Positions 13,888-62,507 of a stretch of 64,000 bases of DNA are shown piece after piece. A program made the position numbers and the translations under genes. A model generated the notes under the pieces. That model saw only the letters and a list, made by a program, of their open reading frames with translations. It was not told the DNA's origin and ran no database searches. The stretch covers positions 1,760,001-1,824,000 of the forward strand of contig CP170459.1 of the NCBI GenBank assembly GCA_047947115.1. The letters run 5' to 3'. Source of the stretch: Verrucomicrobiota bacterium (lineage in GTDB: Bacteria > Verrucomicrobiota > Verrucomicrobiia > Limisphaerales > AAA164-E04). Numbering within the stretch: the stretch's first letter is position 1; the number at the start of each line of letters is the position of its first letter.

Positions 13888-14940
13888 ATGAAACACACGC
13901 AACTCAGTAAAATGGCCATCACCCTGTTGATTGGCTCGATACTCACCTCCGTCACCCTACAAGCCGGATGGATCAAAGGCGCCAAGTATGCCTACAACGT
14001 TCTGGACGGTTTCGGTACCTGGTCCTTCTACTCTGAACTGCTTGAAAATGAAATCTTCAAACCAAATCGCGCGGAAGCCAAACTCCGTGCAAGGCCTGAT
14101 CTCTACACCTATGAAAAAACGACGACCAGTGGAGCATACCATGGAAAAGCACTCGAAGAATCCGAAGCGGGAGCATTCGGCCAAACTCATAATGTTCACA
14201 ACTACGCTGGAAATTATGCGGAATACATCATTCATTGGATCATTGTGGAGTACGATGAGGAAGATGAAGAACATTACGTGGTCAATGGGGCGGGAGGAGC
14301 CTCCAACGGTCCTCATTGGTGGTCGAAAAGCATCTGGGAAAGTTTCGTTGACTCACCTGCAGCTGCCAAAGAAAGCAGTTGGTGGGAAGCCATGATGACC
14401 GGAGACAATTGGTCACGCACAGGTTTCTGGATCACCATCGGCAGTTCCGTCAAGCTGGAATACCCTGACGTCACCATCAAGTCGGATGTCTGGAATCCTG
14501 CACCATTTGGAACCGTCCTCGACGGCCAACTCGTCAACACCGCCAAAAACTTCGGCGGGACTGGACTCAATTACACCGCAAAGGTGCATTTTGAACTGCA
14601 AAAACTAACATGGATTTCTGGCCCCAATGGCACGGGTTACTGGACTAATACAGATTGGAAAACTAATATTGCAGACAAGTTCACGCATGTTTTTCCTGGT
14701 TACCAAGATTCTTCTACAACCAAGTCGCTTTGTCCCCAAAATCATCGTATCCGGCGCGAGGAAGTCAAAGGTGGAATGGATATATGGTGGAACCAAAACA
14801 TTAGCTATTCCAATGCAACTGTTGAGACTCAGGAACTCGATGAGCAAGGCAACCGAACGGGACCAATCGAAACACATACTGGATACATACAGAAGAACAT
14901 CGATTATGTTATAGATTTCAGCACTGAATCACCAGATTGA
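13888..14940 (+). CDS. Secreted hypothetical protein (module gene A0)
   Basis: 350-aa ORF with a clear Sec signal (MKHTQLSKMAITLLIGSILTSVTLQA), Trp/Tyr-rich; 18 bp upstream of a family-B gene. Confidence 0.8.
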   Translation: MKHTQLSKMAITLLIGSILTSVTLQAGWIKGAKYAYNVLDGFGTWSFYSELLENEIFKPNRAEAKLRARPDLYTYEKTTTSGAYHGKALEESEAGAFGQTHNVHNYAGNYAEYIIHWIIVEYDEEDEEHYVVNGAGGASNGPHWWSKSIWESFVDSPAAAKESSWWEAMMTGDNWSRTGFWITIGSSVKLEYPDVTIKSDVWNPAPFGTVLDGQLVNTAKNFGGTGLNYTAKVHFELQKLTWISGPNGTGYWTNTDWKTNIADKFTHVFPGYQDSSTTKSLCPQNHRIRREEVKGGMDIWWNQNISYSNATVETQELDEQGNRTGPIETHTGYIQKNIDYVIDFSTESPD

Positions 14941-14958
14941 TCCATTATTTACACGATC

Positions 14959-16179
14959 ATGAAACGAAAACAAATTTTCCAGGTTTTGGTTTTGATTCCT
15001 CTGGCCATCCTTTGTGGTCTGATCATCAGGGATCGTAGCCCTTATTTTACCCCGATGGTTATTGACTCCTTCAGAGAGGAACCTGATATTCCCACGCCCT
15101 TGCCGCAGAAAAAGTGGAAACCCTTGTCCCAACGTCTGAGTGAGTCGGGGCTTCTAGCCGAGAAACCCGAAAAAGTTGAAGAGATCCGTTTGGCCAAATG
15201 GAAAGCAGAGTTCCCTTGGAAACCAACCCATGACCCAAAATTAGAATTCGATCCAGACCGACATTTCGAAAACCGTGCTTTGGGAAATAAGAGTAACACC
15301 GAATGGGCTACGAGGTTTAACCATACTTATTTGAAAAAGTTCTTTCAAAATGATGAGCGCTTCCTGCCTCAGTTTGAAAAGTTTTACCGGATACTGAAAG
15401 AGTATGATCGAGGCCATAACCCAGTCATGGTAGGAAGGGCATTTTGGGCTTTTAGGCATTACCATCACGCCGCCTTTGAGCGTGATCCAGATGAATACGT
15501 TCTATCAAATGGAAAAAAGGTTAGAAACGGTCTTTTTAGTTACCTGACCTGGGGAGATGAAGTTTCAGGCTATCATGAGAGTCTACGAGGATATTTAAGG
15601 GATTGGGAGTGGTTACGTCCTTCATTTGAAACGATAGAAGGTAAGTTCAATGCAAATGCGTTAATTGAAAAACTCGTGGCTGAAATTGATGGAATGGAGA
15701 CATTGCCCCTAGATGTCATGACCAGTGGAGGTCCTTTGTTAGATTCCTATCCTGATGCCGAAGCACTACTTTCCGGTGAAGAAGAACTGCTGGTTCCCTA
15801 TGCCGGTTGGAATGAGGAGAGCGAGCGCTATTGGGGGGAGCAGACGCGTCAGTTTGAAAAGAGTTACGCAGAAGGAGATCCATCCCTTAAAGCGGCCGCT
15901 CCGGAGCTTTTCCCGCCGGTGGGTGTGAAAGATGGGCAATTGGTGGACAAGGACGGCGATCCGGTGCAATGGCGGGAAGGCACCGATATCGTCCTTGTCA
16001 ATGAACGTGGCGAACGCGTCCCGGTGATCATTGAGGATGATGGAACCATCAGTCTTCCTTCGCCCGAGGACGTCGCCGTTATGCGCGAGAACGGCCAGGT
16101 TCAAAGTGCTGATTTCAATGATCTGCCTCCTGAAATGGCTGAGGCGATTTTAAAGGAAAAAGCAGCAGAGAGTCCATAG
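14959..16179 (+). CDS. Membrane-anchored hypothetical protein, family B (copy B0a)
   Basis: N-terminal TM helix; family motifs WKAEFPWKPTHDP..FDP.R, NH.YL..FF, FEKFY..L.E.DR..NP...G..F and TWGD. Confidence 0.85.
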   Translation: MKRKQIFQVLVLIPLAILCGLIIRDRSPYFTPMVIDSFREEPDIPTPLPQKKWKPLSQRLSESGLLAEKPEKVEEIRLAKWKAEFPWKPTHDPKLEFDPDRHFENRALGNKSNTEWATRFNHTYLKKFFQNDERFLPQFEKFYRILKEYDRGHNPVMVGRAFWAFRHYHHAAFERDPDEYVLSNGKKVRNGLFSYLTWGDEVSGYHESLRGYLRDWEWLRPSFETIEGKFNANALIEKLVAEIDGMETLPLDVMTSGGPLLDSYPDAEALLSGEEELLVPYAGWNEESERYWGEQTRQFEKSYAEGDPSLKAAAPELFPPVGVKDGQLVDKDGDPVQWREGTDIVLVNERGERVPVIIEDDGTISLPSPEDVAVMRENGQVQSADFNDLPPEMAEAILKEKAAESP

Positions 16180-16195
16180 ACGGTGGTGCCATATC

Positions 16196-17415
16196 ATGAA
16201 ACGGAAACGCTGCTTGCAAATCGTGGTTTTGCTACCTCTGGCCATCCTTTGTGGTCTGATCATCAGGGATCGTAGCCCTTATTTTACCCCGATGGTTATT
16301 GACTCCTTCAGAGAGGAACCTGATATTCCCACGCCCTTGCCGCAGAAAAAGTGGAAACCCTTGTCCCAACGTCTGAGTGAATCGGGGCTTCTAGCCGAGA
16401 AACCCGAAAAAGCGGAAGAGATCCGTTTGGCCAAATGGAAAGCAGAGTTCCCTTGGAAACCCACCCATGATCCCAAACTTCAATTTGATCCTATTAGGCA
16501 TTTTTCAAATCGAGCTTTGGGCAACAAAAGCAACACGGATATGGAGACAAGAATCAATCACTCATATCTGAGAAAGTTCTTTCAAAGTGATGAGCGATTC
16601 CTTCCTCAATTTGAAAAGTTTTATAGGATCATGGCCGAGCATGACAGAGGACACAACCCAGTCATGGTGGGGCGGTGTTTTTGGGCTTTCAAACATTACT
16701 ACAATGCCGCCTTTGAGCATGATGCTGAGGATTATGTTTTTGAGAATGGTGAAAAGGTGAAGAAAGGATTGTTTAGCTATTTGACTTGGGGAGATGAGGT
16801 TGAAGGATATAGGGAAAGTCTCTGTGGGTATTTACAGCATTGGGCGTGGTTAAATCCGACATTTAAAACGGATAAGGGTGAAGCGGATGCTTATTCATTA
16901 ATCAACCGTTTGGTTTCTGAAATTGATGGTATGGAGCTATTACCAATTAACGTCATGAGTGGTGAACGAATATTATGGGATGAACACCCCGATGCCCAAG
17001 AGCTTCTTTCCGGCGAAAAGGAGCTCTTGGTTCCCTATGCAGGTTGGAACGAGGAAAGTGAACGATACTGGGGGAGCAGACGCGTCAGTTTGAAAAGAGT
17101 TATGCCGAGGGAGACCCTTCCCTCAAGGCGGCCGCTCCGGAGCTTTTTCCACCGGTTGGTTTCAAAGATGGGCGATTGGTGGATAAAGATGGAGATCCTG
17201 TGCAATGGCAAGAAAGCACCGACATTGTCCTTGTCAATGAGCGTGGCGAACGCGTCCCGGTGATCATTGAGGATGATGGAACCATCAGTCTTCCTTCGCC
17301 CGAGGACGTCGCCGTTATGCGCGAGAACGGCCAGGTTCAAAGTGCTGATTTCAATGATCTGCCTCCTGAAATGGCTGAGGCAATTCTGAGGGAAAGAGCT
17401 GAAGGTGAACAATAA
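16196..17415 (+). pseudogene. Family B tandem duplicate (B0b) with -1 frameshift in a G tract
   Basis: G5 at 17070-17074 versus G6 at 15833-15838 in B0a. Adding one G gives 406 aa, the same length as B0a; ORF 17176..17415 is the displaced C-terminus. Confidence 0.85.
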
Positions 17416-49249: not shown

Positions 49250-49274
49250 AGCTAACGGTTGATCGGATCAGTAT

Positions 49275-49309
49275 TGAATAGTGAATAGTGAATTTAGAAT
49301 GGTGAATTG
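49275..49309. repeat. Short 7-bp period intergenic repeat (TGAATAG-like)
   Basis: TGAATAG TGAATAG TGAATTT AGAATGG TGAATTG. Confidence 0.55.
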
Positions 49310-49316
49310 AGTGTGG

Positions 49317-50045
49317 TTAGTGTTCCGAGACCATTAGCCATTTCCAACGAACAAACACCACCGGCCTTTCAAACCATGAGTTTGTGCTAGGGATTTTTTC
49401 TACGATGACTTTGTGTTGATCGGGATCGGCTTCTATCCAGGTTTCGTCACCGATATAGGCAAATGCATGAATTCCGTCTGCGGTGATGGCTACATCACCC
49501 ACTTGCAGCAACGAGTGATCTGTCTGGTTGATGCTCTTACTTTCGAACAGGCGGGTTGTCCAGTCACGGTAGCCATGTAAGAGTGCATCCGCTGAACCGT
49601 CATACCACCATAGTTCCAGGGCTTCCCGAATTGGGAGTCCATTGAATGTTCGTAATCCGTATCTGACCTGAGCCCAAAAAAGGCCTTTTCTGACCAAGCC
49701 TGAACAATCGATACCAACAAGATTTTCGCCACCCCAGACATATCGGGTTCCATGAAACCATCTCAATGATCGGGTATAATCCTTTTCAAGTTCTTCAGGT
49801 GATACTTTCCTTCCCGGTAGACAAAGCAAAATAAGCAGTAAACAAATTGGAACAATGAAACAAAAACGAATCCACTTTTGATGCCACCAAAGAATGACTC
49901 CACCACCGACGGTTGCAACGAGACCAAATACAAACAGGATACGGGTCAACTGGTATTCAATGGGATAAACCCAAACCAACAGCGTCGCGATGAGTATCCA
50001 TGTCCACAGACGTTTAAAGATCGGTTTGAACTGTTTCTCGGGCAT
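49317..50045 (-). CDS. Membrane-anchored NlpC/P60 family peptidase
   Basis: Three N-terminal TM segments; YVWGGE..GIDCSGLV and a downstream HAFAY. Confidence 0.85.
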   Translation of the reverse strand: MPEKQFKPIFKRLWTWILIATLLVWVYPIEYQLTRILFVFGLVATVGGGVILWWHQKWIRFCFIVPICLLLILLCLPGRKVSPEELEKDYTRSLRWFHGTRYVWGGENLVGIDCSGLVRKGLFWAQVRYGLRTFNGLPIREALELWWYDGSADALLHGYRDWTTRLFESKSINQTDHSLLQVGDVAITADGIHAFAYIGDETWIEADPDQHKVIVEKIPSTNSWFERPVVFVRWKWLMVSEH

Positions 50046-50144
50046 GGAACTCTTCAGCCTTTCTCTTCATTTTGCTTCCTGATGAATCTTCACTATCACT
50101 GCCCCTAACTCTCGAGTCCAGAAAATCGGGATGGGCGTGAGTTT

Positions 50145-50251
50145 CGTCAATACGGATATGGGGTGTCGGATACTGTTGGGTTTTCCATTGTGGAGTGAAA
50201 TGCAGGGGATGGACGCCACAAGGTTGCGCGTCGAGACGACCCGATCTACCT
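50145..50251. repeat. Second, partly degenerate copy of the 21.7-kb REP/MITE element
   Basis: 25-bp identity CGCGTCGAGACGACCCGATCTACCT with 21795-21819, plus GAAA.GCAGGGGATGGA.GCC.CAAGG upstream. It supplies the amidohydrolase stop codon. Confidence 0.75.
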
Positions 50252-52003
50252 GTTGGTTGAGTCAAATACCATTTTGCCGTTCACAAATGTGCGCAACACC
50301 TGGATGTCTCGGATGTCATTTTCCGGGCAGGTGAGGATGTTGCGGTCGAGTTCGATGAGGTCGGCGAGTTTGCCGGGTTCCAGTGATCCGGTTTCGTTTT
50401 CCAGGAACATGAGTTGGGCGTTGTTCATGGTGTAGAACCGGATGGCCTGCATGCGGGTGAGTCCGTGTTCGGCATGCATCCGGCCCTCGTAATCGAGCGC
50501 CTTGCGCGTGATGGCTACCCAAATGCCGAGAAAGGGATTGTAGGGATTGATGGATCGTAGCCCGCCGATTTTTTGCATGTGATCGCTGCCTCCACCCGTC
50601 AGGACACCCGCTTCAAACATGGGGCGCAAGGGTTGGAAATACTCCATGCGATGATAGGGGAATTGTTTGCTCAGGGTTCGACTGTCGAGATAGAGCCAGA
50701 CTGGTTGGATGTCGGCGGATATGCCTAGAGCGGCCATGTGGTCAATAGCTTCCGGCGACATGAAATTACAGTGAGTAATATTGGGGCGTGTGGACTGAAT
50801 CGGGTTTGTCTGATTTACAAATGCGTAGGCTTCGATGAGGGCATGCACTGCTCCATCGCCTACACTGTGAGCCGTGAATTGAAGTCCGCCTTGTACCGCT
50901 GCCTTTATCGCCGCGCGCAGGGATTCATCTGAAATGAACCGAATACCGTGGTAATGCGGATCATCGATTCCATAAATGTCGCTGGTGCCCCAAGGTTCGA
51001 GCAGGAAAGCGCTGCCCGTGAGCATGCCTCCGTCTAGAAACATCTTTACTCCGATGGTGCGTAAAAATGGATCCCGATTCGTGTGCAAGGGTTCGTTCGC
51101 GATGTTTTGAATGCGATCCACCAATCCTTCGGGATCCAATTGATTGCTGACGGACCTGGAAAGAGCTACACGCACCGATAATTGATTGCTTTCTTGTATC
51201 CGTTTGTAAATTTTTACCGCGCTGTCCGAAGCGTTGCGATCCACGATGCCGGTGATGCCATTGGCGTTGTAATCGCGCATCAGTTCGATCAATCGTGTTT
51301 GGCGATCCTTGTCGGTCGGGCTCTTACCGGTGGACGGAATGCTCAACAACCGACTCCAACCACGAAGGATCCCTGAGGGTTCGCCGGTTTCGGGATTGGT
51401 TTCCACCTTGCTGCCTTCCGGCACATCCATGTCCTTTCGAATGCCTGCTCTTTCAATAGCGAGTGTGTTGAGCGACGCATCCGGACCCGTTCTGAAAATG
51501 ACCGGATGGTTTGGAGCCACTCTGTCCATTTCCTGGCGCGTTGGATAGCGGCGTTCTTTCAGTCTCGTGATGAACACTTGTTGGATGACGATCCAATCGC
51601 CTTCGGGAACGGTCTGGGTTCTGGATGCGATATATGCCAGCACATCGGATATTTGATGCAGGTTCGGGATGGCGTGATCAAATTCGATCATGGCCGCACC
51701 GAGAGGGTGGGTGTGGGAATCGATCAGACCCGGAAGCACGGACCGGCCTCCCAGATCGATGATTTCAGTGGAGGAATCAGCCAGTTTGAGAATGGTCTGA
51801 TTATTGCCCGTAGCCAGGATGTTGTTTCCGCCAATGGCGATGGCCTCCGTAATGGTTTCGTTCCCATCCATCGTCACGACGGATCCGTTGTGGTAAATCA
51901 GATCCGGAGCGACGGCCGAACATGACGGACCAACCCAAAACAAATGTCCGAGGATAAACGACAGCGCGATGCTGATGACATGATGGAATGCCGTTGGGCT
52001 CAT
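50246..52003 (-). CDS. Amidohydrolase (YtcJ-like)
   Basis: VLPGLIDSHTH, KMFLDG, AHSVGD, GGSD and GSLEPGKLADL. Start uncertain. Confidence 0.92.
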   Translation of the reverse strand: MSPTAFHHVISIALSFILGHLFWVGPSCSAVAPDLIYHNGSVVTMDGNETITEAIAIGGNNILATGNNQTILKLADSSTEIIDLGGRSVLPGLIDSHTHPLGAAMIEFDHAIPNLHQISDVLAYIASRTQTVPEGDWIVIQQVFITRLKERRYPTRQEMDRVAPNHPVIFRTGPDASLNTLAIERAGIRKDMDVPEGSKVETNPETGEPSGILRGWSRLLSIPSTGKSPTDKDRQTRLIELMRDYNANGITGIVDRNASDSAVKIYKRIQESNQLSVRVALSRSVSNQLDPEGLVDRIQNIANEPLHTNRDPFLRTIGVKMFLDGGMLTGSAFLLEPWGTSDIYGIDDPHYHGIRFISDESLRAAIKAAVQGGLQFTAHSVGDGAVHALIEAYAFVNQTNPIQSTRPNITHCNFMSPEAIDHMAALGISADIQPVWLYLDSRTLSKQFPYHRMEYFQPLRPMFEAGVLTGGGSDHMQKIGGLRSINPYNPFLGIWVAITRKALDYEGRMHAEHGLTRMQAIRFYTMNNAQLMFLENETGSLEPGKLADLIELDRNILTCPENDIRDIQVLRTFVNGKMVFDSTNR

Positions 52004-52054
52004 GGAGCGAGAATACCACCCGTTCATGTGATTCGCACAGTAATTTATTGGTTG

Positions 52055-52085
52055 TCTCACACAAAGACTCCAAGCCGCGAAGGAA
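52055..52085 (+). repeat. CACACAAAG-family palindromic repeat, left arm only
   Basis: CTCACACAAAGACTCCAAGCCGCGAAGGAA, 29/30 identical to 55752-55781. Confidence 0.8.
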
Positions 52086-52200
52086 GCGGAAAGTGACATG
52101 ATTACAAGCCCCTATTGTTGGGAATAAAACAACAGGTCAGGGTTCCAGTAATGGAGGTTATCGCATACTTGCGCATCTCATTTTGGCTTGATGAGTTGAG

Positions 52201-53136
52201 TCAGCGAATCAATAACTTATCTCCTGGTTTTAAGGCTTTTTCTGCACTGTCATGATAGGCGAAGGCCCCGATATCACCATTTGGTAAGTGGATAATAGGT
52301 TGCATCTTCACAAAGTTTTCGGACGGTATTTCATTGATGAGCCGGTCTCTGAAGGCGCGCGCCACATCGGCATCCAACAGTTCCTTGTTTGGCCAATACA
52401 TCGAACGGACGAGCAAACCCACAATGGCATCATGATAGCTTTTAGCTTGGTCGCCCCAAGTGGTTTTGCCGTCAATCGGTACAAGAACGGGAACCATTTT
52501 ACCTGGCGGATCGGATTCGTTCGTGGAAGGTACATATGTCTTCTTTGAATAGAGTGCATTTTGATCCTTCCGTTTGCATTGGTGATAGCATCTAAGATTT
52601 GAGAAGATATCTCCAGTGATCATCGGGTTTTCTGCTCGGTCGATTTCCTTTAGCATATGATAGAGTTGCTCAAATTCGGCGGTATAGATTTGAGGGTTGT
52701 TGTAAAATGCGACCATGTATCCATGATTTTTAACCGCTGTTTCCATTTCTGGATCTCCGGTGAAGGTTGCAGGATTGTTCGGATCGTACCTCGAAGGATC
52801 ATATTTGAGCGTCTGATGATAGGTTGGTTCGTAAGGAAAATTGGCTTTCCAATTTTCCAAACGCTGTTTTTCGGTAGCTTCCTCGACATTTTGCTTTTCA
52901 AGTGCTCTTGCTTCTTGCTCCTGTAGTCTTCGGTATATGGCAATGCCATTACGTGCATCGATGGATGTCTTGTTGTTAAACGAAGGATTGTTGGATTGCT
53001 CTTTCGACCATTCATTCTTGTTGTTGAAGTCTAGCCTTGTTTTCGGTTCAGGATCCTTTGGCCAAAAATAAACGAACAGGATAACCAGAAAAGCGAGAAC
53101 ACCGAGAGCAGCTTGCTTCTTATTTAAATTTTTCAT
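52201..53136 (-). CDS. Membrane-anchored hypothetical protein, family B (B1)
   Basis: TM anchor; WKANFPYEPTYH..LKYDPSRY, VKNHGYM, FEQLYHML.EIDRAENP, TWGD and LKPGDKLLIR. Confidence 0.88.
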   Translation of the reverse strand: MKNLNKKQAALGVLAFLVILFVYFWPKDPEPKTRLDFNNKNEWSKEQSNNPSFNNKTSIDARNGIAIYRRLQEQEARALEKQNVEEATEKQRLENWKANFPYEPTYHQTLKYDPSRYDPNNPATFTGDPEMETAVKNHGYMVAFYNNPQIYTAEFEQLYHMLKEIDRAENPMITGDIFSNLRCYHQCKRKDQNALYSKKTYVPSTNESDPPGKMVPVLVPIDGKTTWGDQAKSYHDAIVGLLVRSMYWPNKELLDADVARAFRDRLINEIPSENFVKMQPIIHLPNGDIGAFAYHDSAEKALKPGDKLLIR

Positions 53137-53237
53137 GAAAAATTTCTTTCAGTAATAATTTTAACACTTGCCAGATTAAAAAGTGCCGTAATCAAGATCA
53201 TATTCATAAACCACCCATTGGTGTTCGTTGATAAGGG

Positions 53238-54708
53238 GAACGGTGTCAAAAGAGTGAAGCCAAATTTGCCGCCTGAAACCGGGTTCCTGCGATGTGTTTC
53301 AGTTGTCTGATTCGGTTCTTTTCAAGGGTTTCAAAATGATTAAAATGCTCTAAAACAGAGAATTTAGCCGGTTTTTGTGCGATTAAAGTTGACTCTAGCG
53401 CTCTGACCCCAAAAAATTTTCATGCCAAGAGCTCTATTAACTGATAATAAGATATTTACAGCATTCTTCAAGCCTTTATTTGACGCCTTGAATCGAGCTG
53501 TTCACACTCGCCAATGTAATGAATTACCCGACCAGCATTGGCTTGAATTAGGAGTCACCCGAATTCTTATGGAATCCCCCAGCGGCCGGGGGTTTCTCCA
53601 GCAATACGGCCCCCACTTTCAGAGTGATATTTCTGTGGGGCTTTATTTCGAATCTCTCAAAAGTAACCGACGCCTCCTTCTTGCCGATGAATTAAATGAT
53701 AGTATTTGCGCTAAAGCAGCCAAAGAACTTAATGACCCTCTTCAGGATTTTGAGGAACTAAAAAAATATGACATCTATGCCGCTGATGGCCATTGGCATG
53801 GTGCTTCGGCTCATGAAGTACGCAAGAATGAAAAGAAATGGGCTCCCGGTTACTTCTACGCCCTGAATCTGAGATCCCATGCAATCAAGTTGCTGGATAC
53901 AGCCGATGAGGTTCATCGTAAGCATGAGCATGACATGCGAGCCCTCAAAAGGATGGGTATCGAAACACTCAGGCAGGGTGCCAAGACGGGACGCAAAGTT
54001 CTCTATGTGTATGACTCTGCGTCCATCGATTTCAATGAGTGGGATTGGTGGAAATCACGAGGTGGAATTTATTTCGTTTCCCGCATGAAAGACGGAACTG
54101 CCTATGAATGTCTGGATGAACTGGAAGTCGATCATGAAAATGGTATCAATCACGGAATCACGTCCGATGAAAAAATCATAGTCAATAACCAGAGCATTCT
54201 TCGACGAATCGTATGTGTCGATCCGCAAACTGGGAAGGAACACGTTTTGATCACCAACCAATTGACGATTTCGCCAGGTTTGTTAGCACAGCTCTATCGG
54301 ATGCGTTGGGATATTGAGAAGGTATTCGATGAGTTTAAAAATACACTTCAGGAGAAAAAGGCATGGGCCGGATCAGTCCGGGCCAAGAAGATTCAAGCCA
54401 ACTTTCTTTGCCTGGCACATAACCTCTGTCTCTTGATGGAGCATGATTTGGAAAAGGATTACGGAGTGAGCAACGAAGCAGAAATTCGTCGACGTCAAAT
54501 TCGCTTTGAAGCAATGAAAAACGCTGCCAAAGAAGCCGGGAGAAAATGGTCAACGGTGTACGAATGCGTCCAGCGCTACTCCAAGCGAAGCGTAAAGTTT
54601 ATCCGGTGCTTGAGATCATTTTTCTTTTTAGAAAAGCCCCTAATTGACATGGCGGCTCATCTCATCCGTTTATATGCGAAGTTATGATTGACTTTTTTGA
54701 CACCGTTC
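53238..54708 (+). mobile_element. Complete IS4-family insertion sequence
   Basis: IRs GAACGGTGTCAAAA(G/A)AGT (17/18). 8-bp TSD GATAAGGG at 53230-53237 and 54709-54716. Confidence 0.93.
53422..54687 (+). CDS. IS4-family DDE transposase
   Basis: AADG, VYDSA, FVSRMK and the Y-2-R-3-E-6-K motif YRMRWDIEKVFDEFK. Confidence 0.9.
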   Translation: MPRALLTDNKIFTAFFKPLFDALNRAVHTRQCNELPDQHWLELGVTRILMESPSGRGFLQQYGPHFQSDISVGLYFESLKSNRRLLLADELNDSICAKAAKELNDPLQDFEELKKYDIYAADGHWHGASAHEVRKNEKKWAPGYFYALNLRSHAIKLLDTADEVHRKHEHDMRALKRMGIETLRQGAKTGRKVLYVYDSASIDFNEWDWWKSRGGIYFVSRMKDGTAYECLDELEVDHENGINHGITSDEKIIVNNQSILRRIVCVDPQTGKEHVLITNQLTISPGLLAQLYRMRWDIEKVFDEFKNTLQEKKAWAGSVRAKKIQANFLCLAHNLCLLMEHDLEKDYGVSNEAEIRRRQIRFEAMKNAAKEAGRKWSTVYECVQRYSKRSVKFIRCLRSFFFLEKPLIDMAAHLIRLYAKL

Positions 54709-55678
54709 GATAAGGGTGTCTATAAGTTCTTTCGGATTGTGCATTGCCAGGGATGTCCAGTTGAGGAGGTTGCTATTTGGCCATTGAGCTTTCCATTTAC
54801 GTTTGCATGTACCATGTGCGCTGGGACCTGAAATAATTTCGGTGTTTTCAGGAAGTAGGTCAACATTGGTGACCTTGTCTGCCTGGATTTTGCTGACTTG
54901 AACCACTCTTCTTGTTTCCTTGCTTCTTTCAACGCTCGTGAGTCCTTCAGCCAACGTATAATCCAGATCTGCAAGTTTGTATCTTATTTCGAGAGCAAAA
55001 TCTCCTTGTAGATTTCTGAGGCCTTCACCTCCGTTGTTTGAATAGTTTGAAAAGATGACATATTTGGCGTCCCAGAATTTGATGGTTCCCGTTCCGATCC
55101 AGGTTTCATCATCATTGACCACCGTAACAATTCCTTTTCCCGCGACTTGTGATCGAGTGATGATTTTTCCCGATTCATCGATATTGTAGACATGCCAGTG
55201 GTGATACGAAAATTCACGATCAAGGAGTTCAAATCCTCCGTTTGCGTGTTCTTCTCCTCGCAGGTGGTTTTGTTGATAGGTCTGTTGGTAGCCAGAAAAC
55301 TCATCCGCATACCAGTTGGCGTTGACCGAATTGCCATAATCCATCCAAACGGCACCGGCGCTGGCAATGGATTCCCCTTCACGTGTAACCATGCGTTCGG
55401 CGGCGTCCATGACCGCGCCGTCAATGCCTTCGATGACTTTCCCCATGATGTAGTCTCCTGCTTTGATCAGGACATCGTAAAGATCTGCCTTTGCTGTCAT
55501 ATGAGTTAAAAATAAGCAGGTGGCTAAAATGAATGTTTTTCCTGCTTTAGGGTAAACTCCTGATTGCTTTCTCATCTTCTTTTCCTTTTTTGATTTGTTC
55601 CTTCTTCACTTGAGACCATTGTGATGGATTAATTTTACTGGGTGAGGGAGGGAATGCAAAAGAGGATGCTTTTTGGGA

Positions 55679-55715
55679 GTGATTTTTTGGGAGTAATTAG
55701 ATGTCGCGTTTTGGT
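55679..55715 (-). promoter_or_regulatory. Candidate regulator site upstream of A1
   Basis: Coding strand ACCAAAACGCGACATCTAATTACTCCCAAAAAATCAC; variants at 62140-62174 and 62402-62439. Confidence 0.45.
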
Positions 55716-55751
55716 GATGGCTATTACTGAAATAATCTTGTGGTTGATATG

Positions 55752-55827
55752 CTCACACAAAGACTCCAAGCCACGAAGGAAACCGTTCTTGGAAAGCAAA
55801 AAATTCGTGTTCTTCGAGGCTTAGTGT
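55752..55827. repeat. CACACAAAG-family palindromic repeat
   Basis: Left arm CTCACACAAAGACTCCAAGCCACGAAG; degenerate right arm TTCGTGTTCTTCGAGGCTTAGTGT. Confidence 0.75.
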
Positions 55828-55832
55828 TTGGT

Positions 55833-57002
55833 TTATTTGGTTTCTTCTCCAAATCTCCATTGAAAGGGGCTCAGTGTATCTGGGGTGGTATTCTCGGTGA
55901 GTGCTCTGGATAGCACTTCTCCGATGCCTGCTGAATGTTTGAAACCGTGTCCCGAGCAGGGTGAGGCGATCCATACTTTATTGTTTTCGGGGTGGTGATC
56001 GATGAGGAATCCGAAGTCCGGTGTGACCGTGTATTGGCAGGCTACAGAACGAATGCACTTTGCCCTGATGCGCAGGTGGGAGCTGGCGGATTCGAACATT
56101 GTTTGTGTTTCTTCACTGGTAACCGTTTGGTTCAGAAGATCAGGATTGCATGGTATATCAAATTGTTCGCCGGCAATTTTGAGCCCTTTGCCGGAACCGC
56201 CCAACTCAGGGAATCCGTAAAACATGGAATGAGTGGCATCCGGTACCCGGATGTAAATGGGCATGTTTTCGGGAGTGAACATGTCTTTCGGTCCATCGGT
56301 TTGGAACCAATGTAACAACTGTCGGTAAGTGCGGGTGACGGGTTGCCATTCCGGGACTAGTTTGCCGATCCATGGTCCGGCTGTAAGGACGATGCGTTCA
56401 GTCCGGTACGTACATTGATCTGTCTTTATGCAAAATCCCTCTCCATTCTTTCTCGATGAGTGAAATGATTCGTTAAAGCGAATGCCTGCCCCCAGAATCC
56501 TTGCCTGGTCCAACTGGGCTTGAATGCAGGCCTCGGGGCGTACATAGCCGGCTTCAGGTTCGTAATATCCGGATTCACCTGAGTGAAACTTGAATTGAGG
56601 AAATCGCTCCGACATTTCATCCGTGGTCAGACGTTCATGTTGAATCTGATGTTTGGCGGCAACTTCGCATGTTGTCTTCAGAAAATCTTCAGCACCATGT
56701 GCCGCCTTGCGGCCGTTTGAGCCCGCAAAGATCAGGCCTCCGACTTGGTGCAGTAACGAACTGCCGGTGGCGGATTCCAACTCCCGCCAGATTTCGTGGG
56801 ATCGTTTGACCAGCGGGACATAGGCCTCGTCTTCTCCCAAGGCCAGGCGGGTAATGCGTGTTTCACCGTGGGAAGAGCCACGGTTGTGCGGTGGCTGAAA
56901 TTGATCAATGCCCAAAGCATGCACTCCCGCTTTCGCCAACTGGTAAAGAGTGGCGCTACCCATGGCACCAAGACCGATCACGACAACTTCCGGAGATCGC
57001 AT
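55833..57002 (-). CDS. solA: N-methyl-L-tryptophan oxidase / monomeric sarcosine oxidase family
   Basis: VIGLGAMGSA, GSSHGETRITR, CQYTVTPD and CSGHGFKHS. Confidence 0.9.
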   Translation of the reverse strand: MRSPEVVVIGLGAMGSATLYQLAKAGVHALGIDQFQPPHNRGSSHGETRITRLALGEDEAYVPLVKRSHEIWRELESATGSSLLHQVGGLIFAGSNGRKAAHGAEDFLKTTCEVAAKHQIQHERLTTDEMSERFPQFKFHSGESGYYEPEAGYVRPEACIQAQLDQARILGAGIRFNESFHSSRKNGEGFCIKTDQCTYRTERIVLTAGPWIGKLVPEWQPVTRTYRQLLHWFQTDGPKDMFTPENMPIYIRVPDATHSMFYGFPELGGSGKGLKIAGEQFDIPCNPDLLNQTVTSEETQTMFESASSHLRIRAKCIRSVACQYTVTPDFGFLIDHHPENNKVWIASPCSGHGFKHSAGIGEVLSRALTENTTPDTLSPFQWRFGEETK

Positions 57003-57016
57003 AGGTGTGGCAGGAA

Positions 57017-58003
57017 TTAATCGGATAAGGCTCCCGTGCAACTGCTACCAGCCCCGGCGCAGCAGGCCAGGCAATGGTTTCCCGTCTGAATGTCGATCTT
57101 CATCCATGTCTCCGGATCAATGTCCCAAAGATAGAGAGGTTTGCCATTTCTCAGTTGCATGTTGAGCATTTGATTGAAATCACAATCATATACTTCGCCC
57201 AGGTATCCAACGCTGATCGTACTGCGGCACATCAGGCCGGTTACAGTCGCCGGGTTGAAAGACTGCACCAACAAGTCCATGTAAGCTTCGAGTTGGCCAC
57301 TGGTTTTCAAATCTTCAGCAAAGCGGGCGATGGGTTGGTTGGTGATGGTGAATAGTTGGTCGAATACGATTCCGAATTCCTTCTTGAGAGCTTCTTTGTA
57401 ATCTTGTTCCAGTTCGGCTTGTGGTCCGGGTAATTTGGGGCCGAGCGGATTGTAAACCAGATTCAGTTTGAGTGTCCCCGATCCGTAGCCGGCACGGTTC
57501 AATTTTTGGAGACCGCGAATGCTCTTTTCAAAAACGCCATGGCCTCGTTGTTTGGAGACATTGTCGGCGGTGTAACAGGGCAAGGAGGCGATGACTTCGA
57601 CTTCATGGTCAGCCAGGAATTGATCCAAATCTTCAAAGCCGGGTTCTTCCAGGATGGTCAAATTGTTGCGATCCATGACGTGGCATCCCGCTTCTTTGGA
57701 TGCTTTGACCAATGGACGAAAGAATTCGCTTAGTTCGGGCGCACCTCCCGTGATATCGACCTTGGCGGGGCGATACTGGTCAATCCAGTGAGAGATCTTT
57801 TCGAAGGTAACGGCATCGATGGTTTCCGTCCGCCACGGGGCGGCGTCCACATGACAATGTCGACAGGCCTGATTGCATTGGCGACCGACATTGATTTGCA
57901 ATGTGTTCAACTGTCCCCTCTGCAAATGAATCTCATGCGCCGCCAATTTATGTTCAAACTGATTCATGGTAACCAGAGCGACCATACACGGAGCATATTC
58001 CAA
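57017..58003 (-). CDS. Radical SAM / Cys-rich DUF3641 protein (ArsS-like)
   Basis: CNQACRHC, DITGGAPE, SLPCY, YDCDFNQML and C-terminal HCLACCAGAGSSCTG. Confidence 0.88.
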   Translation of the reverse strand: MEYAPCMVALVTMNQFEHKLAAHEIHLQRGQLNTLQINVGRQCNQACRHCHVDAAPWRTETIDAVTFEKISHWIDQYRPAKVDITGGAPELSEFFRPLVKASKEAGCHVMDRNNLTILEEPGFEDLDQFLADHEVEVIASLPCYTADNVSKQRGHGVFEKSIRGLQKLNRAGYGSGTLKLNLVYNPLGPKLPGPQAELEQDYKEALKKEFGIVFDQLFTITNQPIARFAEDLKTSGQLEAYMDLLVQSFNPATVTGLMCRSTISVGYLGEVYDCDFNQMLNMQLRNGKPLYLWDIDPETWMKIDIQTGNHCLACCAGAGSSCTGALSD

Positions 58004-58049
58004 AAGCGATGGTTTTTGAGAAGGAATCGTATGTGTAGGTATGATATTT

Positions 58050-58142
58050 TCTCACACGAAGCCACTCAGACACGAAGGCTTTTTTATTATGCCAAATGTT
58101 TCCTTCCGTTAAATCCTAGTGGCTTCGTGTCATTGTGTGAGA
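58050..58142. repeat. CACACAAAG-family palindromic repeat
   Basis: TCTCACACGAAGCCACTCAGACACGAAGG...CCTAGTGGCTTCGTGTCATTGTGTGAGA, ending 5 bp from the B2 stop. Confidence 0.8.
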
Positions 58143-58147
58143 TCATT

Positions 58148-59071
58148 TCAGCGGTAGAGTAGCTGGTCACCTGATTTTAATGCTTTCTCAGCATCGTCAT
58201 AGTAGCCGAATGCACCGATCTGACCGTTGGGGAGTTCCACTACATCCCTCATTTCGAAGAGATTATCTGATGGGATTTCGTCCAGGAAACGGTCTCTAAT
58301 CGTTCTTGCCGTTTCCGCGCTCATTTCTTCCTTATTCGGCCAGCATTTTTTCAAGGCAAGTAATCCAACAATAGAATCCCTGTATCCTTCCATCTTGTCG
58401 CCCCATGTCGTTTTTCCATCAATGGGAACACGAGCCTCTGTCATTCCTTGCGACGATTCATTCATGGTATCGTTTTGAACAAGGCCTGGTCGGGACCACA
58501 GATCTGTAGGGGCGAAGCGTTGGCTTTTGTAGTAGTGAATCAGCATGTTGAAAATACGCCCTGTCATAATGGGATTGTCTGCCCGATCCACTTCTTCCAG
58601 CATGTGATATAACTGTTCGAACTCGGAGCTATAGATGTTTGGGTTATTGTAAAAAGCCACCAGAAATCCATGATTCTTCACCGCTGTTTCCATCTCGAGA
58701 CCACCGTGGAAGGTTGAAGGATTACCCGGATCATACCTCGTTGGATCATAAGTTAATGTGGGGTGATGGGGCGGCTGGTAAGGAAAGTTTTCCTCCCAAC
58801 GTTGTCTCCGTAATGCTTCAGCCTCCTCTGCTTTTGTTTTGTCCTCCTTTTTTTCCTGCATTTGTCTGTGTGATTCTATATTCGCGTTCAGGTTAGCCAA
58901 AGCAGGTAGCGGTGTGGTCGACCGAGTGGCGGGAATTTCTTGCGCTTCAGGTTCCAGGTTTGGTTTGGAAACGGTTTGGCGGTTTGTTGTGCTCTGACGG
59001 AACAAAATACAAACCGCCAATGCCAAAAGCGCCAACCCTGTTTTCATTCGTTTGAGCTTGGATTTGTTCAT
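58148..59071 (-). CDS. Membrane-anchored hypothetical protein, family B (B2)
   Basis: Same motifs as B1 (WEENFPYQP, VKNHGFL, FEQLYHML, TWGD, LKSGDQLLYR). Confidence 0.88.
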   Translation of the reverse strand: MNKSKLKRMKTGLALLALAVCILFRQSTTNRQTVSKPNLEPEAQEIPATRSTTPLPALANLNANIESHRQMQEKKEDKTKAEEAEALRRQRWEENFPYQPPHHPTLTYDPTRYDPGNPSTFHGGLEMETAVKNHGFLVAFYNNPNIYSSEFEQLYHMLEEVDRADNPIMTGRIFNMLIHYYKSQRFAPTDLWSRPGLVQNDTMNESSQGMTEARVPIDGKTTWGDKMEGYRDSIVGLLALKKCWPNKEEMSAETARTIRDRFLDEIPSDNLFEMRDVVELPNGQIGAFGYYDDAEKALKSGDQLLYR

Positions 59072-59109
59072 GATCGTTTACATGTTCTATTTACGATTTG
59101 TTTTGAAGC

Positions 59110-59880
59110 TCAATTCCATCCGTAATCGACTTGGTATTCGTACATGCCCCACTCGCTTTCACTGATCACTGCGTCAAAGAATCCTTCCCGATCAAAAAGT
59201 ATCATTCTTGCCCATTCCTCCACGCTGTAATTGGGCATGTTGCGTTTATAAACACGTTTGCACTTTCCGTATGCGGCGGGACCTTCAAAGATTTCGGTGT
59301 CATTTTCCAGAGGGTCGACATTTGTGACATTCTCAGCTTGTATTTTACTCACTCTGACATAGCGATAGTCCTCCCTAGCGCGTTCAGAGCTTGTTAATCC
59401 GTATTCGGCTGAGTAATCCAAATCAGCCAGTCTGTATTCAATTTTGGGGTTGAAATCACCCCCGGGGCGTCTGAGTAATTCTCCTCCCGTGTTTGAGTAG
59501 TTGGAGCTGATAACTTAACTGGTGTCCCAATGCTTGACCGTTCTTGAGCCGATCCATGTGTCCTCACTATTGACAACCACCACAAATCCGGTTCCAGCTA
59601 TGAGCTCCTGATTTTGTAATAGCAGGGGATCTTCCAGGGTTCCTAAACCTTCCTCATCCCATACCTCCCAGTCATGATAGGAAAAGTTTCTGTCAAGAAG
59701 CTTGAAGCTACCGTTGATGTGCTCCTCCCCCTAGAGATGGTTTTGTTGGATGGTTTGGTGGTAGTTGCCGAACTCATCGGCATACCAATACGCTTCCAGA
59801 GCAGTGCCATAATCCATCCAGATGGCACTCGCACTTTCACTGGATTCGCCGTCGCGAGTGATGAATCCTTTGATTTAATT
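59110..59880 (-). pseudogene. Family A copy A2: 5'-truncated with in-frame stops
   Basis: Collinear with A3 from N*IKGFITRDGES onward. Stops at 59877-59875 (TAA), 59733-59731 (TAG, CAG in A3) and 59517-59515 (TAA, TAT in A3); no signal peptide region. Confidence 0.88.
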
Positions 59881-59980
59881 CTATCAGGTCTTGGGGACTG
59901 CAAATTTACCTCCCGTCGTTTACTGGACGTATACTGTCGGTTGTGTTGTTACGTTCATCTATGAAGCTTTTTTCATTGTG

Positions 59981-60916
59981 TCAGCGGTAGAGCAGTTGAT
60001 CGCCTGGTTTGAGGTTTCTCATGGTTTGGCCAACGTATCCAAATGTTCCGATTTGGCCGTTTTGCAATTCAACAACATCCTGCATCTTGATCAGGCTTTC
60101 AGATGGGATTTCCTCGATCAGTCTGTCTCTGAAGGCCCGAGCAGTATCTGGAGTTATTTGTTCCTTGTCAGGCCAATATTTGTCTAACACCAATAACCCC
60201 ACAATACCGTTTCGATAAGTTTCCGCCCGCTCCCCCCAGGTTCTTTTTCCATCTGGTGTCAATCGCAACTCTTTCAAGGAGCCAAGTTCATTGGGAGCTG
60301 TAGCATTAGATTCGTATTTCATTTTTTTAAGCAAGGCGTTTGAATCGTTTAGACAGCTTTTGTGATAATGGATCAATAGATTGAAAATTTTTCCTGTGAT
60401 GATGGGCTGATCAGCTCGGTCAATGCTTTCCAGCATTTGATAAAGCTGTTGAAATTCGGCGCTGTAGATTTGGGGGTTATTGTAAAAAGCAACCAGATAG
60501 CTGTGGTTTTTTACAGCCATCTCCATTTCTGGATCATTTCTAAAGGTTGCAGGATTGTTTGCGTCATAGCGAGTAGGGTCATGCGTAAGTGTAGGATGAA
60601 AAGTTGGTTTGTATGGGAAATCCTTTATCCAATGTTCCTTTCGTAGATTTTCCTCATCCGTTTCTCTTTGCACAGCAAGGCTGTTCTCGATCTCCTGTTC
60701 CCTTGCCTTGCGATGACGTTCGATGCTTGAGTGTAAATTTGCAAGTGCGGGCAAGGCAGTTTCTGAAGAGTTTGTAAGTTGGGGGAATTCTTTTGGATTA
60801 CTGTCTTCTATGGCTGCTTCTTTGTTGGTGTTGGAACGTTGGAGAAATACCAGTAAGCCTGTTACAGCAACAAGGACTAAAGCAATGGCTGCTCTCCTGA
60901 TCTTTGGATCATTCAT
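59981..60916 (-). CDS. Membrane-anchored hypothetical protein, family B (B3)
   Basis: Same motifs (WIKDFPYKPTFH, VKNHSYL, TWGE, LKPGDQLLYR). Confidence 0.88.
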   Translation of the reverse strand: MNDPKIRRAAIALVLVAVTGLLVFLQRSNTNKEAAIEDSNPKEFPQLTNSSETALPALANLHSSIERHRKAREQEIENSLAVQRETDEENLRKEHWIKDFPYKPTFHPTLTHDPTRYDANNPATFRNDPEMEMAVKNHSYLVAFYNNPQIYSAEFQQLYQMLESIDRADQPIITGKIFNLLIHYHKSCLNDSNALLKKMKYESNATAPNELGSLKELRLTPDGKRTWGERAETYRNGIVGLLVLDKYWPDKEQITPDTARAFRDRLIEEIPSESLIKMQDVVELQNGQIGTFGYVGQTMRNLKPGDQLLYR

Positions 60917-60953
60917 GATATTTTCGTTTTGAATTGTTTGGTTTTAGAAGATG

Positions 60954-61871
60954 CTATTCCCATCCATAGTCGATCTGGTGTTCGTAGAATCCCCATTTCG
61001 TTTCATTAAGCACCACGTCGAAAAATCTCTCCTGATCCAGAAAAATCATTCCAGCCCACTCTTTGGCAGAATAATTGGGTAGTATGCGTTTATAGACGCG
61101 TTTGCATTTTCCGTATGCGACGGGTCCTTCCACCATTTCAGTCCCATATGGCAACAAATCTATGTTTGAGACTTTGTCGGGCTGCACTTTGCTGACCCTT
61201 TCTACATGCCACCCATAATCATCGCGTTCGCTGCTCACCAAGCCGTGGTTTTTCGAGTAGTCCAGATCGGCCAATCTGTATTCAATTTTGATGTTGAAAT
61301 CACCCCCGGGGCGTCTGAGTAGTTCTCCTCCTGTGTTTGAGTAGTCCGACTTGATAACATAGCTGGCGTCCCAATGCTTGACGGTACCTGAGCCGATCCA
61401 TGTGTCCTCATTGTTGACAATCACAACAAATCCGTTTCCGGCAATTCGCTCGTAATTCTGTAATAGCAGAGGGTCTTCCAATGTCCCTAAACCTTCCTCA
61501 TCCCATACCTCCCAGTCATGATAGGAAAAATTTCTGTCAAGAAGCTCGAATCCCCCATTGATATGCTCTTCGCCCTGGAGATGGTTTTGCTGGATGGTTT
61601 GATGATAGTTGCCGAACTCATCGGCATACCAGTATGCTTCGATGGCAGTGCCATAATCCATCCAGACGGAGCCCGCGCTGGCGATGGACTCGCCGTCGCG
61701 AGTAACAAAGCCTTTTAATTCATTCACAAACGCCCCTTCGATCACACCTGCTATTCGGTTTAAAATGTAACCGGGTAGTGATGCGTGTGCCTGGTTATTT
61801 CATGCAAAAAGCAGCATGAAGACGGTTAGTAATTTTCCTGTAGCGATTCGGTTGCCTGATTTTTTATTCAT
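60954..61871 (-). pseudogene. Family A copy A3 with in-frame TGA in the signal peptide (codon 24)
   Basis: ATG at 61871 after AAGGA: MNKKSGNRIATGKLLTVFMLLFA*NNQAHASLPGYILNRIAGVIEGAF..., TGA at 61802-61800. The rest of the frame is intact. Confidence 0.8.
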
Positions 61872-62219
61872 TGTTATTCCTTACTATAATATTGATCTGA
61901 TTTGTTCACCCCTGATTCCCGTGTTGTTTATGGGTTTCCCCAATATCCTCTCAATATTCAGGCTCTTTCTGAAGGATCGCTTGGGGAGGGGCGGTTTTGG
62001 TTTTTGGTGGCGTGCGGCGGGAAGTTTTGCTGCCACGCTAACCGGAAGAACCGTCCTGCTATCTCTTCGGGTTTTGTATTGATATGAAAAATCTAACCGG
62101 AAGGAGCCTGGAAGACAAATGAGAAGTCATGGAAGGGGTGCGATTTTTGCGGTACTTGGATGTCGCTTTTTGGTAACGCTTTTATCAATGGTGTTACTTC
62201 AACATGGGAGTGCTTTTTT

Positions 62220-62288
62220 TCTCACTACAAGGCACAAAGTCACAAAGAAGGGGGATAAAACTTTGTGTCCTGGTGTCTTTGTGTGAGA
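62220..62288. repeat. CACACAAAG-family palindromic repeat
   Basis: TCTCACTACAAGGCACAAAGTCACAAAG...CTTTGTGTCCTGGTGTCTTTGTGTGAGA. Confidence 0.8.
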
Positions 62289-62507
62289 AAGATTTGGTGC
62301 TGGTTCAATCTGAAAGGCTACCCGACTACCTCACAGGGTTTTGTTCTGGTGTGATCATCATAATGTTCAAATAAAAAGGGGACAAACGTGGAGTTCTTCA
62401 GGTGATCTTTTTTCTGATACTCAGATGTCTTGTTTTGGTATGTGGATTGGGGGGAGTATTTCCTTTTGTTTCGGTTCTTTCGTAGTTAGTTTGTCATGTA
62501 AGCAAGT

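Follow-up and report, generated by a model that had tools for sequence, protein, structure and literature searches.

What does it mean when a bacterium has broken three related genes, each in a different way, and kept the partner gene beside every one of them? This question is raised by a stretch of 64,000 nucleotides from a Verrucomicrobiota genome (assembly GCA_047947115.1, contig CP170459.1, positions 1,760,001 to 1,824,000), hereafter the window, whose positions 52201 to 61871 hold three copies of a two-gene cassette. We call the upstream gene, for a secreted protein of about 300 amino acids (aa), A, and the downstream gene, for a membrane-anchored protein, B. Judged by their sequences, A and B form an unnamed two-gene family. 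A first-pass annotation had likened this pattern to that of polymorphic toxin loci and had proposed that B is useful without its own A, as an immunity protein rather than a private chaperone. Here we describe that the same order of loss recurs across the family, with A broken first in 24 pairs and B in 1. We see about an even chance that A is a secreted membrane-attacking protein for antagonism and B its periplasmic protector, possibly also its escort.

Three lesions at one locus

The cassettes lie on the minus strand in the order A3-B3-A2-B2, followed by two unrelated genes and then by A1, an insertion sequence (IS) and B1 (table 1). The IS4-family insertion reported for A1 is confirmed by its terminal inverted repeats, an 8-bp target duplication (53230-53237 and 54709-54716) and further copies in the genome, five of them identical and two 97% identical. 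It follows codon 289, with only 17 codons beyond, and the codons before it are identical (289/289) to those of the 306-aa allele P0041. We infer that A1 is inactive because the lost tail holds the last strand (mature residues 263-268) of a predicted sandwich. The 5' deletion of A2 was likewise found: the gene begins at the equivalent of A3 codon ~50, about 49 codons being missing, and has neither start nor signal peptide. Of the three in-frame stops attributed to A2, two lie in the clearly homologous part (TAG 59733-59731, TAA 59517-59515), and there are three only if a TAA at the 5' edge (59877) is counted. A3 has a TGA at codon 24 (61802-61800), within the signal peptide as first described, and a downstream GTG opens a 263-aa frame without signal peptide. 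B1, B2 and B3 are open over the full lengths that had been given, 307-311 aa.

For a population check, contigs of four DNA runs from four studies (4/20 holder rows) were aligned to positions 52000-62300. A contig of run X1 covers the A3 stop with 0 differences, and a contig of run X4 covers the A2 TAG and the 5' junction with 0 differences. The junction is crossed ungapped by contigs of 4/4 DNA runs, and the Joint Genome Institute contig L216 carries the same internal A2 TAA, plus an additional frameshift. Because the A3 TGA, A2 TAG and A2 TAA recur in independent contigs, we reject sequencing error as their cause. An alternative genetic code for the A3 TGA is rejected as well, as TGA terminates B1-B3 and a sense codon occupies this site in conspecific alleles.

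The lesions of A1 and A3 are recent, strain-level and polymorphic. The IS is absent in X2, X8, X15 and X16 (2/4 DNA runs and 2/4 RNA runs) and in contig L219, and the intact A1 allele P0041 is present on 13 contigs. Intact 305-aa A3 alleles (P0059, P0063, P0066) agree with the two parts of A3 at 197-198/205 and 99-100/100 positions. At the corresponding place, the sister species G001 carries two pairs, both intact; A1 and A3 are intact in this species. Against G001, dN/dS is 0.138 for A1, 0.105 for A2 and 0.096 for the front of A3, compared with 0.091 for B1, whose orthologue is 93% identical, and 0.208 for B2; two neighbouring genes have 0.095 and 0.11. Both sides thus appear to have been under purifying selection (A 0.10-0.14, B 0.09-0.21), which indicates that A was maintained until recently. 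Two of the three lesions are too young for B decay to be expected yet under any hypothesis. In the RNA contigs of 4 runs every A and B gene has thin, patchy cover; with DNA carry-over possible and no level shown by contigs, they speak neither for nor against B expression. A promoter scan gave 17 sites, with 14.1 +/- 3.0 in shuffles.

Order of loss across the family

We scored A-B pairs in related genomes. B-centred fetches took in 39/39 merged loci in G017, most in G009 and 20 stretches around the strongest matches in G016. A-centred fetches, which avoid a bias towards good B genes, took in G013, G016, G011, G015, G018 and G020, with lists for G017 and G009. A counted as broken when it had a stop, a frameshift, an IS or a lost signal peptide, and B when its anchor or core had a lesion, its variable tail being ignored. 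Not counted were pairs at contig ends, four broken A genes with no detected B, a partial A of 167 aa, the second copies of tandem B genes, remnants of B alone and the genomes G011, G014, G030 and G110.

Among the 106 pairs of an A with its first B, from 11 genomes, 65 have both genes intact, 24 a broken A with an intact B, 16 both genes broken and 1 the reverse. After clustering of related loci the ratio is 22 vs 1 at 85% DNA identity (p 6e-6 against 50:50) and 17 vs 1 at 75% (p 1e-4). With an expected B share of 0.4 the p-values become 1e-4 and 1e-3, all of these being approximate as kin genomes are not independent. The ratio is 21 vs 1 without the three window pairs, and per genome A-first to B-first it is 2:0 in G009, 6:0 in G013, 7:0 in G016 and 6:1 in G017. 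The sole exception, an intact A with a truncated B (L201 in G017), has a 72%-identical paralogue (L060) with a frameshifted A and an intact B. Assembly frameshifts would strike both genes and so fail to account for the direction. When 9 genomes were searched with A at the centre, B went undetected only beside a broken A or an A at a contig end.

The expectation that A breaks more readily than B is therefore borne out for the first lesion, and qualified by the pairs in which B has decayed too. Taken at face value, this order says that an A without its B would be costly, that a B without an A would be useful, or both. An antidote predicts the observed order, a plain private chaperone predicts none, and a cross-acting chaperone predicts that B is lost more easily. 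A count of this kind offers a sequence-only test that separates protective partners from mere helpers.

B genes without A, tandem B genes and a fusion

Solo intact B genes, defined as having no A within 1.5 kb upstream, make up 4/5 B matches in G011 and several in G014. One example follows dnaN at 22 bp and another a DUF1501 gene at 48 bp. Solo subfamilies common to the two genomes have pN of 0.21-0.28 vs pS of 0.77-0.84, which suggests that some solo B genes are under purifying selection; very divergent A clients might be encoded elsewhere in these genomes. Several loci have extra tandem B copies behind one A. In G011 (L197:520-2910) one 797-codon frame fuses an A-like region, long and secreted, with a B domain that lacks the membrane anchor; its A-like motif (hhalign E 2.4e-4, probability 44%) is the only A-like match in this genome. 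No longer B fusion was found among proteins of 847-2415 aa, which is weak evidence, and the 761-aa fusion is itself shorter than that range. The solo genes and the family-wide order of loss support the proposal that B is useful without its own A, for which the three window genes alone are a weak basis.

Further arrangements were observed. At L002 (G000:C1:895121-902790) an A has four B genes behind it. One of these is a 778-aa double B, and an open reading frame of 167 aa that weakly matches the C-terminal part of A lies between the genes. This locus lies directly behind a GspE/PilB-like ATPase gene (named by eye), and the A4-B4 locus (L001) is also near one. At L075 in G017 a secreted collagen-repeat protein (PF01391) replaces A directly upstream of an intact B. 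At L096 (G000:C1:5512700-5514940) the gene of a 256-aa secreted protein precedes two B-like genes that are short (239 and 236 aa) and distant. The 2947-aa protein P0245 has seven weak matches to the C-terminal motif of A (E 2e-7), probably repeats.

Recombination and loss of cassettes

The 5' truncation of A2 is common to several populations, and 235-aa open versions which lack the 5' end and have no internal stops are found (P0008, P0071, P0073, P0081). The identity of A2 and A3, per 60 bases, is 77-92% up to one codon and 55-77% past it. Full or near-full-length records with an A3-like front and an A2-like back are P0069 (11 contigs), P0072, P0075 and P0077. Their fronts match A3 at 196/205 or 178/187 positions and their backs match A2 at 96-97/100. 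These alleles are known from assembled contigs, some of which could be chimeras. G001 carries the same form, with the B2 orthologue directly behind. Either recombination of A3 with A2 drops B3 and activates the A2 end, or a module of A3 end and B3 displaced that end. On this evidence A2-B2 looks like an older silent orphan module or cassette.

The A1-B1 pair is also lost as one unit. In a contig of run X15 the empty site joins 52055 to 55752, with 3696 bp absent, and since G001 has the cassette and both of its bracketing 30-bp repeats, the empty site is more likely a deletion. The repeats belong to a REP-like family with 17 copies genome-wide in a pattern search and 0 in a shuffle. Five copies lie in this 10 kb (window positions 52056, 55752, 58051, 58119 and 62265) around the A-B cassettes, with matching sites in the sister species. 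We considered the repeats as a cassette-specific att site, an idea that is weakened by their membership in a dispersed family. Near-identical A-B cassettes, some broken, were also seen at distant sites of G017, G013 and G016 (L078/L079, L148/L149, L160-L163, L188/L189), L078 and L079 having an exact 3.3-kb block in common.

Predicted structures and conservation

Using AlphaFold2 with custom alignments, we modelled mature A (the A1 orthologue of the sister species) and B1 with a predicted local distance difference test (pLDDT) of 93.6 and 90.5, respectively. In the A model, two helices at the N-terminus precede very long strands, of up to 23 residues, and further helices form the C-terminus. 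Fold matches, all of Z under 4, suggest an immunoglobulin (Ig)-like sandwich at 38-275 with a sheet inserted at 49-141. The best Z in the VIA comparison was to adhesin Ig/fibronectin type III (FN3) repeats (Z 3.9, root mean square deviation (rmsd) 2.9, 86 residues). Foldseek ranked highest a viral fusion protein of class III (E 0.007) and then the aerolysin-like lamprey immune protein LIP (E 0.008, TM score 0.15, rmsd 26 A), neither TM score exceeding 0.15; Dln1 had E 0.12 and a TM score of about 0.15. The MspA rim gave Z 3.4 (rmsd 4.6, 106 residues) and the pore of iota toxin Ib gave Z 2.3 (rmsd 8.2, 152 residues).

The B model consists of a transmembrane helix, a disordered (low-confidence) linker, a 43-residue stalk and a helical head. 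The hydrophobic helix (6-23) follows basic residues and is itself followed by the soluble domain, a charge pattern that suggests a periplasmic orientation. The best fold match reached Z 6.2, to unrelated helical bundles. B proteins have 300-480 aa, and most CdiI immunity proteins are smaller. Seven B residues (W96, F100, P101, H138, F144, F155 and G305) are kept in at least 90% of 107 sequences, and no residue of A is conserved at the 90% level. In A, whose alignments span the whole protein length across the family, the inserted sheet is the most variable part (median identity 0.12) and the C-terminal sandwich the most conserved. In 34/51 members, mature A opens with 40 residues that are hydrophobic or amphipathic (internal control only).

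Prediction of the A-B complex gave an ipSAE of 0.60 (runs 0.60, 0.79 and 0.00), while the best of 3 controls scored 0.00. The pLDDT of the partners was at least 73, and the runs agreed in at least 0% of contacts. Scores no higher than 0.60 are known for 18/157 solved complexes and for both of the mismatches, out of 215, that passed. By the tool's rating, the model lends weak support to a binding of A by B. Confidently modelled as they are, with no match to a solved fold or a curated family, A and B are structural targets in their own right.

Weighing the explanations

If A is an attacker and B its protector, A would leave the cell by Sec and probably then through the cell's type II secretion system (T2SS), whose secretin GspD is above the NCBIfam cut-off in this genome. 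The glycine/alanine-rich hydrophobic or amphipathic first helix of A would insert in the target membrane of related cells, and B, anchored in the inner membrane and facing the periplasm, would bind A and keep it harmless. Losing B while A works would be harmful, so that A would go first and B would linger, sometimes long enough to protect against the A of neighbours. In this strain three A genes are off, two of them by recent private lesions, and A2-B2 would be an older orphan module which recombination with A3 could switch on. A more far-reaching version, which we regard as tentative, is that A is a new-fold pore-forming toxin for kin discrimination, released via type II secretion, with B as both export escort and antidote.

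Several of our results weigh against the antagonism reading. A is a toxin by prediction; it matches no known toxin in sequence or fold, and its fold searches (PDB Foldseek, VIA and a viral library) stayed at background level, though such an absence excludes nothing. The conspecific intact A1 and A3 alleles mean that the window alone says little about B. B does decay after the loss of A, as seen in the 16 pairs with both genes broken and in many B-only remnants in G017 and G009. B2, behind the oldest lesion, shows apparent signs of decay itself: in one X2 contig (depth 6.7) a frameshift at codon 289 removes a conserved motif, and nonsynonymous changes exceed synonymous ones in L216 (9 vs 2) and L215 (6 vs 3), small counts in both cases. 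Script output for the census was curated by eye to assign each status, and six calls were changed, the A1 of G001 and L082 to intact and the window A1, L146, L151 and L158 to broken. The median pairwise identity is 0.31 for B vs 0.10-0.18 for A, and a conserved B suits a folding partner equally well. A chaperone accounts more easily for a secreted A-B fusion, and the order of loss would also arise if an unchaperoned A were merely costly.

A possible, if less probable, explanation is that B is a substrate-specific, foldase-like chaperone of type II secretion and A a secreted protein that is non-toxic or directed at a host. An unchaperoned A would then be a burden and quickly silenced, whereas a spare B would be cheap and could serve a related A in trans; LipB, according to the text available of PMC4713064, also serves a distant lipase. 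B adjoins A, and its single N-terminal transmembrane helix, low-confidence linker and helical periplasmic domain fit the definition given in that source. The secretin, the variability of A beside a conserved B, the fusion and the presence of other secreted/anchored-helical pairs in the same arrays (L076, L123, L214) also suit a chaperone. A strictly private chaperone, however, predicts roughly equal first breaks in A and B rather than 24 to 1. The burden type predicts the order of loss too but explains solo B genes less well, and G011 keeps 4 intact solo B genes though its sole A-like match is the fusion. B also has no match to the Lif family in Pfam, and no Lif structure was among the fold matches listed. 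As A has no toxin match and B has the sequence traits of a T2SS chaperone, immunity over private chaperoning is favoured, short of being established.

We consider it unlikely that A is a variable surface adhesin or antigen which B anchors or presents, and which is switched off under pressure from phages, grazers or hosts, B being left as a harmless passenger. The hypervariability of A, above all in the inserted sheet, the weak alignment of its sandwich with adhesin Ig/FN3 repeats and the largest expansions occurring in few genomes of one genus would fit an adhesin. However, breaking B would hide A equally, so that no order of loss is expected, and the conserved solo B genes are left unexplained. 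It seems similarly improbable that accessory genes of one strain decayed by chance into the three-for-three pattern of this window, which would then say nothing on B. The three lesions all differ, A1 and A3 are intact in conspecifics and the sister species, three other A genes of the genome are intact and the RNA cover of all A and B genes is thin, all of which suits chance. This idea is weakened by the family census, in which four other genomes (G009, G013, G016 and G017) show the same direction.

If the more far-reaching version of the antagonism reading is true, one conserved B scaffold would neutralise a hypervariable toxin family. Marine Verrucomicrobiota that lack a type VI secretion system (T6SS) would then build barcodes of self-identity from dozens of dispersed A-B cassettes, silent swap cassettes and solo B genes. 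A B protein that is both escort and antidote would link type II secretion chaperones and immunity proteins, which are usually treated apart. As natural intact alleles with cognate and non-cognate B genes are on record, the central claim can be tested in E. coli.

Taxonomic distribution and further features of the window

The host genome, a single contig of 6.08 Mb, carries six clear A genes, and its B matches number about a dozen. B1 has relatives in 17/21 other genomes of the family and in 1/19 that represent the order's remaining families. Among a further 400 genomes of the phylum, for each of which 5 candidates were scored, G110 alone had full-length B matches. Profile matches of B, which are not copy numbers, reach 35 in G009, 51 in G017 and 80 in G016. 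An A profile search gave 152 clusters among 1.84 billion representatives, and the taxon names among the 10/152 clusters looked up were only metagenome-assembled genomes of Verrucomicrobia. The holder runs are estuarine, seawater and marsh metagenomes, with few urban or unspecified ones. The cassette thus appears nearly confined to one marine Verrucomicrobiota family, with few to dozens of repeats per genome. Neither A (66 and 100 members in Pfam) nor B (107 members in Pfam) had a match in Pfam, NCBIfam, PADLOC or PDB sequences, and the ESM Atlas gave no informative match. In the literature, where coverage was thin for subscription journals and supplements lay outside, we found no comparable interbacterial weapon for Verrucomicrobiota.

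In G110, a 2-Mb genome of another family, positions 25000-63500 of contig C2 hold four full-length B genes, at least two with an A upstream; either horizontal transfer or a mis-binned contig may account for them. The arrays also hold other unannotated pairs of a secreted protein and a different membrane-anchored helical protein (L076, L123, L214, L118, L101). Some of the secreted members are cysteine-rich and helical, with no Pfam match above cut-off, and these pairs may be further systems of the same design.

Table 1. Features of the A-B loci in the window (window coordinates).
Feature	Position	Strand	Remarks
30-bp direct repeat	52056..52085	+	downstream bracket of A1-B1 cassette; REP-like family
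B1	52201..53136	-	intact, 311 aa; N-terminal transmembrane helix, linker, long stalk helix, helical domain
A1 3' tail past IS	53176..53229	-	17 codons and stop; matches end of intact allele P0041
IS4-family element	53238..54708	+	1471 bp, strain-specific; transposase 53422-54687
A1 first 289 codons	54709..55575	-	with signal peptide; frame ends within IS
30-bp direct repeat	55752..55781	+	upstream bracket of A1-B1 cassette
Two unrelated genes between cassettes	55833..58003	-	FAD oxidoreductase PF01266 and radical SAM/DUF3641; syntenic in sister species
B2	58148..59071	-	intact, 307 aa
A2 remnant	59110..59886 (about)	-	silent-cassette-like; first ~49 codons missing, in-frame stops
B3	59981..60916	-	intact, 311 aa
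A3	60954..61871	-	305 codons, polymorphic in species; TGA at codon 24 in signal peptide
A6	13888..14940	+	distant intact A paralogue, 350 aa
B9 and B10	14959..17412	+	B9 intact, 406 aa; B10 a tandem copy, frameshifted in C-terminal extension

The window has a fourth locus, of the form A-B-B, at 13888-17412, in which B10 is near-identical to B9, and the genome carries two further intact A-B pairs besides it. The FAD oxidoreductase and radical SAM/DUF3641 genes lie outside the A-B system. In the region 49274-50260, an NlpC/P60 gene (49317-50045) has many contigs of RNA runs stopping or diverging at either edge, which suggests a variable insertion flanked by repeats. An IF-3-like gene (named by eye) at 43754-44497 has an acidic, tandemly repeated C-terminal tail.

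Comparison with known systems

The closest layout is that of the orphan modules of contact-dependent growth inhibition (CDI) and Rhs systems. As PMC3150448 describes in the text available, orphan cdiA-CT/cdiI and Rhs-CT/RhsI modules consist of a 5'-truncated, start-less toxin-side gene with an intact partner behind a full copy, and a shared upstream stretch lets recombination swap the C-terminal part together with the partner. At this locus, the one surveyed for it, A2-B2 behind A3-B3 has the start-less gene, the intact partner and the homology for recombination, and swapped alleles are recorded. B also lies behind A in 106/106 scored pairs, which follows from how pairs were built. Unlike CDI and Rhs systems, there is no CdiA or Rhs carrier, no VENN-type boundary and no set of unrelated C-terminal toxin domains in A, and Pfam searches with 66 and 100 A members gave no CdiA, Rhs or toxin match. 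A2 retains five sixths of the protein, with homology to A3 along its whole extent, unlike the orphan CDI genes. A is a ~300-aa Sec-type protein for which toxicity, like immunity for B, is a proposal. Of the marks of a CDI/Rhs-type polymorphic toxin system, A-B has the downstream partner and the orphan module and lacks the architecture.

B resembles the T2SS chaperones (Lif/LipH/LipB and CpaB, as far as PMC4713064 and PMC13381987 describe them) in adjoining a secreted protein and in its anchor, flexible linker and periplasmic domain. The adjacency, the N-terminal transmembrane domain and the periplasm-exposed C-terminal region are sequence traits named by Harding et al. in the text available. 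Unlike Lif, none of 107 B members has a Lif match in Pfam and A has no lipase, protease or hydrolase match. The dozens of dispersed paralogous pairs, the solo B genes and the strict order of loss differ from the chaperones as described in those two sources.

Weak structural hints point from the A model to beta-pore formers (LIP/Dln1, MspA and iota toxin Ib), namely its long strands and the beta element inserted in its Ig-like sandwich. All scores, obtained with whole A rather than single domains, stayed at background (no Z of 5 or above, TM scores of at most 0.17), and we claim no homology.

Orphan immunity genes of Bacteroidales, an acquired interbacterial defence, guard against T6SS effectors (bioRxiv 10.1101/471110, in the part available), and B genes are likewise kept without a toxin. 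TssC (PF05943), the one component searched, with one model, was found in 0/22 genomes of the family, the E. coli control being positive. The sitAI genes, following the accessible part of PMC10047993, are lineage-restricted two-gene cassettes with over 80 loci in some myxobacteria and with presence or absence between close kin; SitA proteins are lipoproteins with nuclease toxins, delivered by TraA/TraB outer-membrane exchange. A-B shares with sitAI the restriction to a lineage, the many loci and the presence or absence between close kin. It differs in that the A proteins form a single beta-rich family, whose signal peptide looks ordinary, and in that B is anchored in the membrane and predicted to be periplasmic; no homology was found. 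By analogy, the A-B cassette might work like a toxin-immunity cassette of the sitAI or orphan-CDI kind.

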